This document shows positions 219 through 4,011 of a stretch of DNA of 4,011 bases, in pieces. The notes under the pieces are model-generated. The model saw nothing but the letters and a program-made list of their open reading frames with translations. It was not told the DNA's origin and did not search any database. The translations under genes and the position numbers were made by a program. Origin of the DNA: a virus (lineage: Duplodnaviria; Heunggongvirae; Uroviricota; Caudoviricetes); the IMG/VR virus record IMGVR_UViG_2713896779_000027; one strand, 5' to 3'. The number at the start of each line of letters is the position of its first letter. Within the stretch, counting starts at the first letter, position 1.

Positions 219-884
219 TCAAACAAAACCAGCCGCTTTCCGGCGTTCATATTCCTGTTTCAGCAACTCAATTGGCGTTGGCCCCGACGGGCGTTTGGGG
301 GCCGCCAGTTGTCGCCGGACTGGCGGAACGCTCAGGCCGTTACTAACATGCTTTGCCCATTTCGTCAGTTGCCGTTCTGCAAGCCGTTTTAATTCCCCTT
401 CGGTCATCTGGCGCTCAATCCCCTTTGAACGCATCTCGAGGCAAATGTGATACAGCACAGGCTGAGACCACGGGTACTTATCACTTCCGTCGTATCGCCA
501 GGACTCATTGCGCCAGCGGCGGTACTCCTCCATCACAGCATCCACCGTCAGACCGAATGGATTGGCTCCGCTTTTCGAAATCAGTGCCACAAACTCAGCC
601 AGGTCCGGAGGCCATGTTTCACCCGCCCGGCAGCGGTCCATGCACTGGCGGCAGACCTGCCGGATTTGCTGCTCAGTCATCGCGCCAATCTGTGCAATCC
701 AGAGCTTCGAAGGTGCGGCCCCGTTCTTCTGGGTCCAGCGGTTCGAATAAACCACCCCCATGAGTTCCCACAGCTTCCAGGCCGTTTCCGTCGCTGATAA
801 ATCCGTTTTCACGTTCCCACTGCTCACGTGCTGCCCGAATTTCCTGAACTGCCCGTGATGCGGTGCCACCTGGTGCTGCTGCAT
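219..884 (-). CDS. lambda P-like replication protein (helicase loader)
   Basis: 221-aa ORF. The C-terminal ~150 aa (from MTEQQIRQV...PDLAEFVALISK... through ...KYPWSQPVLYHICLEMR...ELKRLAERQL... to the end) aligns by eye with lambda P as I remember it (...GQFVAWCREEA...SYPWKSNAHYWLVTNLY...ELRRKAADEL...). AAGGGG sits 5 nt upstream of the ATG at 884. The start is uncertain: from 884 the gene overlaps the upstream O-like ORF by 212 nt; alternative in-frame ATGs are at 761 and 680, the latter giving an ATGACTGA start/stop junction with the O-like stop. Confidence 0.8.
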   Translation of the reverse strand: MQQHQVAPHHGQFRKFGQHVSSGNVKTDLSATETAWKLWELMGVVYSNRWTQKNGAAPSKLWIAQIGAMTEQQIRQVCRQCMDRCRAGETWPPDLAEFVALISKSGANPFGLTVDAVMEEYRRWRNESWRYDGSDKYPWSQPVLYHICLEMRSKGIERQMTEGELKRLAERQLTKWAKHVSNGLSVPPVRRQLAAPKRPSGPTPIELLKQEYERRKAAGFV

Positions 885-1713
885 GGTTTACCCCTTTGCT
901 GACTGGTTTAACCTGCGCCCTGACGTGATTTACGTGACGGGCGAATTTCTGCTCCCACTGAATCTGCGTAAACACTTTCCCCTCCGCTGCCCAGTAGTCC
1001 CGGAAGGCGGCAAGTTCAGCAGGTGTAAATTCTGTCTCCGGCAAAGCCATCCCCCACAACGCAGCCCGTCGTCGAAAATCCCGTGACGGATACCAGCTAT
1101 CGCTCATCGGGAATTTTCCGATGGGTTCGCTCAGGCCATACAGGAATACAGGGGGGGCTGCCTGTAACGACAAAACTTCCTGCTCACTGGTCGGAGCACT
1201 CTCGCGTGCGTTATGTGTGGGGTTTAGATCTTTGGGTTCCTTTGGGTTCCGTGATCCGTTTTTGGGTGTCTTTGATGGAAAATTTGGGTGTCTTTGGTTA
1301 TTTTCCATGCAGCTAAGAGTTCTGTTTTTGGGTCTGTTTTGTGCTGAAACATAACCATTTTCGGTACTGTTTTTATTAACAGCACCAATTTTACCCACCT
1401 TTAAAGACTCCCGTTTTTGGGTGTATTCAGGCTCGGCAACACTTTCTTCTACACCGATAAGTCGGTACACCACAATTTGCTTTGTTCTGCCTTTTCTCTC
1501 ACCGGTATCAACAATTAACCCAATCTCCATCAGGTGTCGTAAGCTGTCCTGCACAGTCTTTTTGTTCAGTTCCGTTACTTCTGCCAGTGCAGATACAGAC
1601 GGGTATGCACACAAATCGGCACCGCACATATCAGCAAGCCAGGTCAATACTGACTTACTGGATGAACTGCCGGTTTTCACCTTTTTAGCCCATCGTAGTG
1701 CATCGATACTCAT
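673..1713 (-). CDS. phage replication initiation protein, O-like in function (N-terminal HTH domain, iteron-bearing linker, C-terminal domain)
   Basis: Long minus-strand ORF (track: 673..1788). N-terminal region (...SVLTWLADMCGADLCAYPSVSALAEVTELNKKTVQDSLRHLMEIGLIVD...) matches the winged-HTH pattern of phage replication initiators. A Pro/Lys-rich linker (TPKNGSRNPKEPKDLNP) is encoded by the repeat array. Lies between the cII-position gene and the P-like gene. Start placed at the internal ATG 1713..1711 (MSIDALRW...), which has AGGGG 7 nt upstream and overlaps the upstream gene by only 29 nt; the 1788 start would overlap it by 104 nt. Confidence 0.8.
   Translation of the reverse strand: MSIDALRWAKKVKTGSSSSKSVLTWLADMCGADLCAYPSVSALAEVTELNKKTVQDSLRHLMEIGLIVDTGERKGRTKQIVVYRLIGVEESVAEPEYTQKRESLKVGKIGAVNKNSTENGYVSAQNRPKNRTLSCMENNQRHPNFPSKTPKNGSRNPKEPKDLNPTHNARESAPTSEQEVLSLQAAPPVFLYGLSEPIGKFPMSDSWYPSRDFRRRAALWGMALPETEFTPAELAAFRDYWAAEGKVFTQIQWEQKFARHVNHVRAQVKPVSKGVNHAAAPGGTASRAVQEIRAAREQWERENGFISDGNGLEAVGTHGGGLFEPLDPEERGRTFEALDCTDWRDD
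1231..1428. repeat. iteron-like direct repeats inside the O-like gene (candidate prophage replication origin)
   Basis: Six copies of a TTTGGGT core, starting at 1231, 1241, 1261, 1283, 1327 and 1416. Includes a perfect 10-bp tandem TTTGGGTTCC x2 (1231-1250) and a perfect 14-bp direct repeat TTTGGGTGTCTTTG (1261-1274 and 1283-1296). Spacings of 10, 20, 22, 44 and 89 bp are close to multiples of the helical repeat. An AT-richer stretch lies between 1340 and 1410. Lambda ori is likewise an iteron array within the O coding sequence. Confidence 0.6.
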
Positions 1714-2236
1714 ACGAACCCCTGGCAGACATTTGTTTATCTGCAAAGTAATATTGGTATTGCTGACGATACGCGTGCTTGAAAGCAATAGCTTTTTCTA
1801 TAAGCTCGTCAGTCTCACGTTCCACAACAACTGGATCCGCAAAAAGCAGCCCGGACTCCACCACATCGCCATATTCTTTGTTTAACCCGGCGATCATGTA
1901 CGTAATGCTTTTTCCGTCAGTAATTTCACAATACAATCTGAAATCGCTGATCCGGATAGCCTCCATAATTGCCGGAATCTGCGCCGTGAATTTGTCACGC
2001 TTATCTCTGGTGTCGATAGCTTTCCAGCGTTCGAATATCTTCACCCGGTTAACGCCCAGCGCCCGTTGATCAACCTCGCCATCATTAAACGTGACGCGTT
2101 GAACATCGATGTTCGGGCGTTCTTTCAGAGCCCAGAATGCTTCCGTGATTAATATCGTCGCCTGCTCCTGTGTCATTCCTGGTCGGCATACCCAGGTATC
2201 CAGAGCCTCACAAACCTGTTCAGTGGTGATTTTCAT
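1685..2236 (-). CDS. hypothetical early-operon protein in the cII position (possibly YdaT-like CII analogue)
   Basis: 183-aa ORF immediately downstream of the Cro-like gene (17-nt overlap) and upstream of the O-like gene. Translation looks protein-like with no low-complexity runs. The only start support is a weak GGGG about 10 nt upstream of the ATG at 2236. Function is assigned from position only; the family call is a tentative recollection. Confidence 0.6.
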   Translation of the reverse strand: MKITTEQVCEALDTWVCRPGMTQEQATILITEAFWALKERPNIDVQRVTFNDGEVDQRALGVNRVKIFERWKAIDTRDKRDKFTAQIPAIMEAIRISDFRLYCEITDGKSITYMIAGLNKEYGDVVESGLLFADPVVVERETDELIEKAIAFKHAYRQQYQYYFADKQMSARGSYEYRCTTMG

Positions 2237-2447
2237 TGTTCAACCGCCCCGCCCGCTTTGCCTTACGATATTCGTCATAAACTTTGGGGTCGTACTGAAG
2301 TTCCCCGCCGGATGCCTCTTGCAGGCGCATCGCGCGACCTTCAGGAACCAGTTCCCCCCATGCAGCAACGCTTGCCAGCCTAACTCCTGCGACATTGGCA
2401 AGCTTTGTTTTGCTGCCAAAAAACGCTATAGCATCAATTTTCAACAT
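2220..2447 (-). CDS. Cro-like transcriptional regulator (P22-Cro/DicC type)
   Basis: 75-aa ORF divergent from the repressor gene. The motif ...IDAIAFFGSKTKLANVAGVRLASVAAWGELVPEGRAMRLQEASGGELQY... matches the P22 Cro pattern (...VIDHFG...AVAKALGIS..AVSQW.EVIPEKDAYRLEIVTAGALKY...). AAGGGG sits 7 nt upstream of the ATG at 2447. A TTGACT/TAGTTT promoter with interleaved operators lies upstream. Confidence 0.85.
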   Translation of the reverse strand: MLKIDAIAFFGSKTKLANVAGVRLASVAAWGELVPEGRAMRLQEASGGELQYDPKVYDEYRKAKRAGRLNNENHH

Positions 2448-2523: not shown

Positions 2524-2931
2524 ATGAAAAACGAAACCTTCGGTGCTCGCCTCTTATACAGGCGAAAAAAATTAAAACTGTCTCAGGCCGCATTAGGTAA
2601 GCTGGTCAAAGTGGCTCACGTAACAATTTCTCAATGGGAAAGAGATGAAACACAGCCAGCGGGGAAGAGATTATTCGCACTGAGCCAGGCGCTTCAGTGC
2701 TCGCCGACTTGGCTTCTTTTTGGAGATGAAGATAAGCAACCAGGCGAACCGATCCCAGATAATCAGCCAGTCAATCTGACAGAAGATCAAAAAGAGTTGC
2801 TTCAACTGTTCGACGCACTGCCTGAGTCAGAGCAAAAGGCTCTGTTGTCAGAGATGCGTGCTCGAGTTGAGAATTTCAACAAACTTTTTGAAGAACTACT
2901 CAAAGCTCGCAAAAGAAGCGCAAATAAATAA
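2524..2931 (+). CDS. dicA: DicA-like HTH (XRE-family) prophage repressor, CI functional analogue without an S24 peptidase domain
   Basis: 135-aa ORF. N-terminal HTH (...LSQAALGKLVKVAHVTISQWERDETQP...) and a C-terminal segment (...LFALSQALQCSPTWLLFGDEDKQP...LPESEQ...EMRARVENFNKLFEELLKARKR...) closely resemble E. coli Qin DicA as I recall it (...LFALSKVLQCSPTWILFGDEDKQP...LPESEQ...EMRARVKNFNKLFEELLKARQR...). Divergent from the Cro-like gene and flanked by operator clusters. The symbol denotes a homologue, not necessarily the K-12 Qin locus. Confidence 0.9.
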   Translation: MKNETFGARLLYRRKKLKLSQAALGKLVKVAHVTISQWERDETQPAGKRLFALSQALQCSPTWLLFGDEDKQPGEPIPDNQPVNLTEDQKELLQLFDALPESEQKALLSEMRARVENFNKLFEELLKARKRSANK

Positions 2932-3006
2932 CCCCCCTTTTTTTCGCAACTCTCTGTAATAAAAAGCACAAACTTTCAAATACTTGTGTTTTTTACATCA
3001 AGAAGC

Positions 3007-3059
3007 TTAGGTTTTTCTACACAAAAAGCTTGACCATAACTCTTAGGTTATTCTAAATT
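3007..3059 (+). promoter_or_regulatory. OL-like operator pair with candidate PL-like promoter downstream of the repressor gene
   Basis: Site at 3007-3020 is TTAGgtttttCTAC; with its 5' C (3006-3020, CTTAGGTTTTTCTAC) it matches the reverse complement of OR site 2 at 14 of 15 positions. Site at 3043-3056 is TTAGgttattCTAA. Between them is TTGACC (3030-3035), with TAAATT (3054-3059) as a weak -10 at 18-nt spacing overlapping the second site. Orientation is inverted relative to the OR sites, as OL is to OR in lambda. Confidence 0.5.
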
Positions 3060-3138
3060 CTACTCATCAAGACACCGCACGGTGTTCTCAGCAAACAGTT
3101 CCGCTACCCGGCGTTAAGGGGAAGCAGAGGATTTCTCA

Positions 3139-3290: not shown

Positions 3291-3340
3291 NNNNNNNNNN
3301 NNNNNNNNNNNNNNNNNNNNNNNNNNNNNNNNNNNNNNNN
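3291..3340. other. run of 50 N: assembly gap or masked sequence
   Basis: Fifty consecutive n characters, directly visible. True length and content are unknown, and the two flanks may not be contiguous. Confidence 0.99.
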
Positions 3341-3432: not shown

Positions 3433-3651
3433 ATGCAGAAACGAGACCCCGTCATCATCGCGCCAGACTATACCGATGATGAACTTTATGAGTGGATGCA
3501 CCAGAAAATTAAGGCGGTGCAGGACCTGAAATGGGCCAATGAAGCCAGGGCTAAGCAGGCTGAAAATCTGTCCGCTCTGGAGCAGGATATCACCAATCTG
3601 GAAAAAGCAGCGGCATTAAGCATTGCCAGAATGATTACATACCTGAGGTAG
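3433..3651 (+). CDS. hypothetical 72-aa protein, probably 3'-truncated by the IS insertion
   Basis: ATG at 3433 with AAGGAG (3422-3427) 5 nt upstream. Translation MQKRDPVIIAPDYTDDELYEWMHQKIKAVQDLKWANEARAKQAENLSALEQDITNLEKAAALSIARMITYLR is helical/coiled-coil-like. The stop (3649-3651) falls within the first bases of the inferred IS left end. No family recognised. Confidence 0.6.
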   Translation: MQKRDPVIIAPDYTDDELYEWMHQKIKAVQDLKWANEARAKQAENLSALEQDITNLEKAAALSIARMITYLR

Positions 3652-4011
3652 CCTGAGTTTAACGGACACTCCTTCCTGAAATAGAATGGCATCAGAAGGA
3701 GCTAATAATGAGCAGAAAAACCCAACGTTACTCTAAAGAGTTCAAAGCCGAAGCTGTCAGAACGGTTCTTGAAAATCAACTTTCGATCAGTGAAGGCGCT
3801 TCCCGATTATCTCTTCCTGAAGGCACTTTAGGACAATGGGTTACCGCCGCCAGAAAAGGGCTCGGTACTCCTGGTTCCCGCACGGTGGCTGAACTGGAAT
3901 CTGAAATTCTGCAACTGCGTAAGGCGTTAAATGAAGCTCGCCTTGAGCGAGATATATTAAAAAAAGCAACAGCGTATTTTGCACAGGAGTCGCTGAAAAA
4001 TACGCGTTAAT
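3644..4011 (+). mobile_element. IS3-family insertion sequence, left end and orfA (element continues beyond the right edge)
   Basis: orfA-type transposase gene with the characteristic HTH N-terminus and leucine-zipper C-terminus, followed by an A7 run (3959-3965) typical of the IS3-family -1 frameshift site. The -1 frame stays open to the window end. Left terminus inferred at TGAGGTAGCC... (3644), with GGACAC at 3664-3669, by analogy with IS3-family inverted repeats that begin with TG. The boundary could instead be at the TGAG at 3654. Confidence 0.7.
3708..4010 (+). CDS. IS3-family transposase OrfA (IS600/IS911-like architecture)
   Basis: 100-aa ORF MSRKTQRYSKEFKAEAVRTVLENQLSISEGASRLSLPEGTLGQWV...LESEILQLRKALNEARLERDILKKATAYFAQESLKNTR. 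Same layout and C-terminal ...ILKKATA...SLN..R motif as IS911 OrfA from memory. AAGGAG (3695-3700) 7 nt upstream of the ATG. Slippery A-run just before the stop. Confidence 0.9.
   Translation: MSRKTQRYSKEFKAEAVRTVLENQLSISEGASRLSLPEGTLGQWVTAARKGLGTPGSRTVAELESEILQLRKALNEARLERDILKKATAYFAQESLKNTR

Follow-up and report, generated by a model that had tools for sequence, protein, structure and literature searches.

IS600 was originally described from Shigella sonnei. The element and its A_AAA_AAA site are already documented, as is the amplification of IS600 in E. coli O121:H19 and Shigella. In the supplement of Sharma et al. 2014 (PMC4066793), the cluster A_AAA_AAA_1 is entered as 'Fam IS3/grpIS3/IS600 [true]; transposase A' with the values 86/385/100, and A_AAA_AAR motifs predominate among IS3-family elements in that study. 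IS600 is amplified in O121:H19, with 27 copies in strain 51104, and IEE-mediated excision of the element has been described in the same serotype (PMC9397093). In the Qin prophage of K-12, the roles of DicA and DicC resemble those of CI and Cro, and the dicBF operon is normally repressed by DicA (PMC5069750; bioRxiv 10.1101/2023.04.14.536235).

The window analysed here, a stretch of 4,011 nt from the virus record IMGVR_UViG_2713896779_000027, combines these two systems: an IS600 copy occupies its 3´ end and interrupts a dicBF-type operon. On both sides of a run of 50 N's (3291-3340), all of the window matches the chromosome of E. coli O121:H19 strain 16-9255 (CP022407; L002) at 100% identity; this strain was used for positions beyond the window edge. 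In this strain the N's correspond to 185 bp of real sequence (L002 12360-12544), and N's at this position are absent from all public contigs that carry the prophage-IS junction. The 185 bp belong to an annotated 99-aa plus-strand ORF (phrog_21318). Their minus strand carries a zinc-ribbon-like ORF, MNTIKFSCPECGG (stop) VFDTSFKPQGSDSFAGAICKNCGHLV..., with one in-frame TAA and a weak phrog_4852 match.

Positions 3644-4011 correspond to the leftmost 368 bp of IS600 (IS3 family, IS3 group), the complete element being 1264 bp long. Of 5426 complete E. coli genomes, 3233 contain IS600 copies that are 100% identical to this segment, and identical copies number thousands across E. coli and Shigella. 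The annotation of the matching copies reads 'IS3-like element IS600 family transposase', to which PGAP often adds 'programmed frameshift'; the name used here follows this RefSeq/PGAP annotation and the O121:H19 literature for 100%-identical copies. The insertion is defined by the following features.

3433-3651, plus strand: ydfC, the target gene; annotated, phrog_1744, unknown function; the last two codons and the stop are supplied by the IS end.
3641-3643, no strand: left copy of the target-site duplication, ACC (3 bp), from the comparison of occupied and empty sites.
3644-4011, plus strand: left 368 bp of IS600; the window end falls inside the element, and the boundary comes from occupied versus empty sites.
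3644-3672, plus strand: left terminal inverted repeat (IRL), TGAGGTAGCCTGAGTTTAACGGACACTCC; 20 of 29 positions match the reverse complement of the right end.
Beyond the window: sequence expected 3´ of the complete 1264-bp element, after the right ACC, CACGTTAATAGC.

Comparison of occupied with empty sites places the start of the element exactly at 3644 (TGAGGTAGCC...). In strain 16-9255 the complete IS600 spans 12848-14111 (1264 bp) with ACC on each side, and the occupied site reads TACAT-ACC-[IS600]-ACC-CACGTT. Deletion of IS600 and one ACC produces TACATACCCACGTT, which is found uninterrupted at 100% identity in strain 2014C-3599 and many other genomes. The two ends, the right one taken from strain 16-9255, are imperfectly inverted (TGAGGT...ACCTCA), the left starting with TG and the right closing with CA. 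A perfect 3-bp duplication flanks 13 of 38 distinct IS600 copies in Shigella and E. coli, where about 0.6 would be expected by chance.

The exact prophage-IS junction is present in six complete genomes, and all six carry the full 1264-bp element, the ACC duplication and an intact orfB. From these genomes, which are 100% identical over the window, we infer that the copy in the window is complete as well. A truncated, dead IS600 fragment in the source genome would agree with the 368 bp that are visible, with the partial IS600 copies that exist in Shigella and E. coli (L053, L056-L061, L064-L065) and with the many draft contigs whose sequence stops inside the IS after the junction. We consider truncation extremely unlikely, since every complete genome with the exact junction has the whole element and its duplication, and draft contigs ending in a multicopy IS are the usual outcome of short-read assembly. 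The complete copy is one of roughly 20-27 that have been amplified in O121:H19, and this amplification, together with IEE-dependent excision in the same lineage, implies an active transposase (PMC9397093).

The insertion changes the C-terminus of YdfC from ...ITYPR-stop to ...ITYLR-stop (PR to LR), as seen when three alleles were translated; no function for YdfC was returned by Pfam or NCBIfam. The chimeric YdfC-LR protein is present in 72 blocks of the assembly collection, including one from O121:H19 strain E15042 (AP024478). The window can be assigned to the O121:H19 lineage, with the chimeric YdfC ending in ...YLR as a lineage marker. A third form of the gene occurs in the O121 strain RM8352 (L003), which has one C fewer compared with the occupied site and encodes a 74-aa YdfC variant ending in ...YHVNS. 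The differences of RM8352 across 22 kb are two single-base deletions in homopolymer runs (L003 12846 and ~4922), of which 12846 is exactly the target site; as deletions of this kind, they are probably assembly errors or simple slippage. An excision footprint in RM8352, or an insertion lacking a clean 3-bp duplication, was considered and rejected, because the site with CCC occurs at 100% identity in 2014C-3599 as in many other genomes. A 98%-identical IS600 was also found in a 1380-bp contig with a coverage of 1.3 that is labelled 'Streptomyces sp. UG1' (NZ_JBNGGG010000135.1; L044); it almost certainly derives from contaminating E. coli or Shigella DNA and is no genuine actinobacterial copy.

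The coding part of the element begins a short distance inside the left end.

3659-3687, plus strand (L002 12863-12891): putative orfA promoter within the left end, TTAACG-17-TAGAAT; predicted by consensus scan only.
3708-4010, plus strand: orfA, a 100-aa HTH_Tnp_1 DNA-binding protein (Pfam PF01527, E = 1.5e-20).
3947-4011, plus strand: beginning of orfB in the -1 frame; 299 codons in strain 16-9255, continuing past the window.

An AAGGAG Shine-Dalgarno sequence lies immediately 5´ of the orfA ATG at 3708, and the stop codon TAA at 4008-4010 follows 43 nt after the A7 run discussed below. The exact 100-aa OrfA sequence is found in public collections under 'IS600 ORF1'. orfA is followed by orfB, which partly overlaps it in the -1 frame; the last stop in this frame lies just before 3947, from where it is open up to the window edge. 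In strain 16-9255 orfB is intact and contains rve, rve_2, rve_3 and HTH_21 domains (Pfam; rve E = 5.9e-26). The DDE triad, located beyond the window, consists of D229, D289 and E325; the second D is separated from E by 35 residues, and position E+7 is a Lys. With a slip at the A7 run, 86 codons of orfA are followed by 299 of orfB, and the predicted 385-aa OrfAB corresponds letter for letter to the NCBI 'IS3-like element IS600 family transposase'. The NCBIfam profile NF033516 (transpos_IS3; cut-off 160 bits) matches OrfAB with 414.5 bits along its full length (positions 1-369 of 369), unbroken across the slip site, and the Pfam domains of OrfAB are HTH_Tnp_1, HTH_21 and rve. A sequence-only reading of the window had proposed an IS3-family element with an OrfAB fusion transposase and a -1 frame open to the window edge. 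All three proposals hold: the element is sharpened to IS600 by the nucleotide identity, the fusion computed across the A7 run is the exact NCBI protein, and the frame is open from 3947 on. Neither of the findings that would have refuted this reading, a missing orfB or missing inverted repeats, was made, as the right inverted repeat (20/29), the ACC duplication and a 299-codon -1 ORF with a DD(35)E triad are all present in the complete genomes that share the junction.

Two elements near the end of orfA make up the frameshift signal.

3959-3965, plus strand: slippery heptamer A_AAA_AAA, the programmed -1 site after codon 86, assigned from phase, reading frames, OrfAB identity and literature.
3968-4008, plus strand: candidate frameshift-stimulating stem-loop (MFE -13.1 kcal/mol, z = -2.73).

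Tandem -1 slippage requires a heptamer in the phase X_XXY_YYZ. The A-run spans exactly 3959-3965, seven A's in all, and 3959 is a third codon position, which gives the 0-frame reading TTA AAA AAA GCA and places the heptamer in this phase. The position just before the orfA stop and the TTA-AAA-AAA-GCA context had been called correctly in the sequence-only reading. An A7 run alone is not rare, a second one being present in the window at 2565-2571. We take the run at 3959-3965 to be meaningful through its phase, its overlap with the 299-codon -1 ORF, the adjacent stem-loop and the fact that distant relatives conserve the entire cassette. Our values for slip codon, fusion length and OrfA length equal the published 86/385/100. 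That frameshifting occurs at 3959-3965 is taken from the literature, where stem-loop-stimulated -1 frameshifting is reported as proven for the IS600 cluster on unpublished data (PMC4066793).

The stem-loop at 3968-4008 is well supported. Its main stem of 9 bp pairs 3972-3980 with 3997-4005 and begins 6 nt past the heptamer; three further base pairs, 3968-3970 with 4006-4008, extend it, so that the structure finishes at the orfA stop. In addition, the loop nucleotides 3989-3993 (GUCGC) could form a second helix with a GCGAC about 10 nt past the window end (equivalent to 4021-4025), which suggests an H-type pseudoknot resembling that of IS3. A search with Rfam at permissive thresholds returned no described RNA family inside IS600; the only matches were DicF and a weak STnc100, both downstream.

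Relatives at 56-68% protein identity retain the same cassette, stem included. A metagenome scan with a pattern of the cassette core yielded 94 further members, or 95 cassettes with IS600; the search pattern fixed columns 34-56, which lie inside the structure. The heptamer in the same register is A_AAA_AAG in 49 of the 95 cassettes and A_AAA_AAA in 37. The core of stem 1 and the second helix are maintained among them, synonymous sites included. The second helix is contiguous over at least 7 pairs in 89 of the 95, and its third-codon positions are compatible with pairing (column 72 is A or G in 94/95; column 75 is C or T in 89/95). Formal covariation in favour of the stem-loop and the pseudoknot is thin, the alignment of 8 sequences yielding double changes at only 2 pairs. 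Because of this thin covariation, the pattern-selected sample and the two overlapping reading frames, the pseudoknot is kept as a prediction only.

The metagenome members (L084-L203) form a large environmental IS3-group family that shares an almost invariant frameshift cassette of ~60 nt with IS600, with the consensus YTAAAAAAR-GC..GCGTACTT.GC..GGAGTCGCTGCC.GGTACGCGTTCATGAA......GCGACTCC. In one subgroup of this family the second helix has moved to TCGCUGCC/GGCAGCGA.

OrfAB could also arise if RNA polymerase added one A at the A7 run, which would bring orfA and orfB into frame in the mRNA. Homopolymeric A runs are known substrates for such transcriptional slippage, PMC4066793 notes that AAAAAAA might give mRNA indels in this way, and some IS3-family members use it (IS1447; PMC6211511). 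The distribution of heptamers argues against this route, as the 49 relatives with A_AAA_AAG have six A's only, a poorer slippage substrate, while ribosomal frameshifting in E. coli is most efficient on A_AAA_AAG. Likewise, conservation of a stem-loop 6 nt away, the canonical spacing, fits ribosomal frameshifting and not slippage, and IS600 is placed under stem-loop-stimulated -1 ribosomal frameshifting in PMC4066793. Transcriptional slippage as the source of OrfAB is therefore very unlikely in our judgement, and ribosomal frameshifting is the preferred reading.

The IS600 copy is located next to the immunity region of the prophage, which contains the following features.

2220-2447, minus strand: Cro/DicC-type regulator, divergent from the dicA-like gene (Pfam P22_Cro, E = 3.2e-13).
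2524-2931, plus strand: DicA-type repressor of 135 aa, the 'immunity' gene (NCBIfam NF007257, 241.6 bits, full length).
3030-3059, plus strand (L002 12099-12128): predicted promoter at the dicBp/pL position, TTGACC-18-TAAATT, from a consensus scan.

Beyond the Cro/DicC gene lie a CII-like/YdaT-like gene, a replication gene with a DnaT domain and a lambda-P-like gene. On the 3´ side of the dicA-like gene, the order is the promoter-like site, the 99-aa ORF, ydfC and IS600; 3´ of IS600 follow a 135-aa ORF, DicF, dicB, ydfD, a 3´-5´ exonuclease, xis, int and ompW. The arrangement is thus of the dicBF type, with DicA, the divergent Cro/DicC gene, ydfC, DicF, dicB and ydfD all present; the DicF homologue (L002 15098-15147) scores 43.5 bits (E = 2.9e-07), which is under the Rfam gathering score of 48. 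The weak STnc100 match (L002 15136-15341) lies just 5´ of dicB and 3´ of IS600. The proposal that the insertion lies beside the immunity region agrees with this map, in which IS600 is ~0.7 kb 3´ of the gene for the DicA homologue and within the operon equivalent to early-left.

Motifs of the CTTAGGTT/AACCTAAG type recur, by eye, in both intergenic regions that flank the dicA-like gene (2448-2523 and 2990-3060). They probably represent DicA/DicC operators, which would overlap the divergent promoters as well as the dicBp-like one. A TTTGGGT(G/T)(T/C)CTTTG-like motif was likewise seen by eye, in several copies, at ~1200-1430, inside the DnaT-domain gene (673-1788, minus strand); by analogy with lambda, these copies look like origin iterons inside an O-like gene.

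IS600 parts the DicA-controlled promoter from DicF/dicB, which could matter should dicBF expression in O121:H19 become of interest. In one O121:H19 sublineage, the insertion may uncouple DicF and dicB from the control they are normally under, either by polarity or by read-out from the element, and precise IEE excision could make this a reversible switch, as for lacZ in the same lineage; we regard this idea as unlikely. If it were true, regulators of cell division, phage resistance and virulence would be freed from normal control. The O121 genome contains at least one more ydfC-type locus (two places in the record), so the dicBF functions may be redundant.

The sequence-only reading had gone further and proposed that the insertion separated the early-left operon from its distal genes and effectively crippled the prophage. 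The first part has a basis in the map, since IS600 does sit inside the early-left-equivalent operon, between the promoter-proximal ydfC and DicF, dicB, ydfD, the exonuclease, xis and int, and a 1.26-kb insertion can be polar. The second part did not stand, because O121 sister strains without the insertion are already defective. Strains 2014C-3599 and RM8352 have this prophage, likewise at ompW, but lack this IS600 copy. In both, a terminase fragment abuts another IS3-family element, the head and tail assembly genes are absent, and the tail-fibre gene and the integrase are frameshifted. The sisters without this copy are 100% identical across the 24 kb compared, one difference in tail-fibre length excepted, and strain 16-9255 minus IS600 and one ACC equals 2014C-3599 at 100% over 22,110 + 1,849 bp. 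The same defects in the IS-free sisters show that they are independent of the insertion, and by parsimony they predate it. Every distal gene (DicF, dicB, ydfD, exonuclease, xis, int) is retained, and no intrinsic terminator was predicted on the plus strand inside IS600. Inactivation of the prophage by IS600 is thus highly improbable, and the decay of a prophage that was defective before the IS arrived is not attributable to this element. As precise IEE excision of IS600 is documented in the lineage, the IS-free strains could be revertants, which leaves this conclusion unaltered.

With near certainty, the locus represents a complete and apparently functional IS600 with an ACC duplication in the last codons of ydfC, within a decayed Qin-like prophage, that would make OrfAB by -1 frameshifting. 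In the proposed sequence of events, IS600 inserted into the last ydfC codons of a DicA/DicC-controlled dicBF-type operon, in a cryptic lambdoid (Qin-like) prophage beside ompW of O121:H19. The event was late and lineage-specific, and the prophage had decayed before it. The element encodes OrfA, a 100-aa helix-turn-helix protein, and a fraction of the ribosomes translating it would shift one base backwards at A_AAA_AAA (3959-3965), probably aided by the stem-loop 6 nt downstream and possibly by the pseudoknot, whose 3´ arm would lie just past the window. A ribosome that has slipped would then read orfB and produce the 385-aa OrfAB DDE transposase. Beyond correct annotation, the importance of this copy is small.

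Compared with known systems, the element is closest to IS600 itself. The 368 bp are identical in nucleotide sequence, and the 100-aa OrfA and the predicted 385-aa OrfAB are identical to deposited proteins; the length of 1264 bp, the 3-bp duplication and the A_AAA_AAA slip after codon 86 are shared as well. The difference from the known element is the insertion site only, which is the 3´ end of ydfC in the ompW-adjacent cryptic prophage of O121:H19. IS3 and IS911 likewise have overlapping orfA and orfB, a -1 slip at a motif of lysine codons, an RNA structure downstream of it and an OrfAB transposase of the DDE type (PMC4066793). IS911 differs in its A_AAA_AAG motif, a Shine-Dalgarno-like element upstream of it and a three-way junction, and IS3 uses a pseudoknot, whereas IS600 uses A_AAA_AAA with a stem-loop of 9-12 bp and has a pseudoknot by prediction only. 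The operon that received the element has the same order of DicA, divergent Cro/DicC-like gene, ydfC, DicF, dicB and ydfD as the K-12 Qin dicBF operon, and it differs from Qin in the IS600 at the end of ydfC, the location of the prophage at ompW and the presence of other replication genes.
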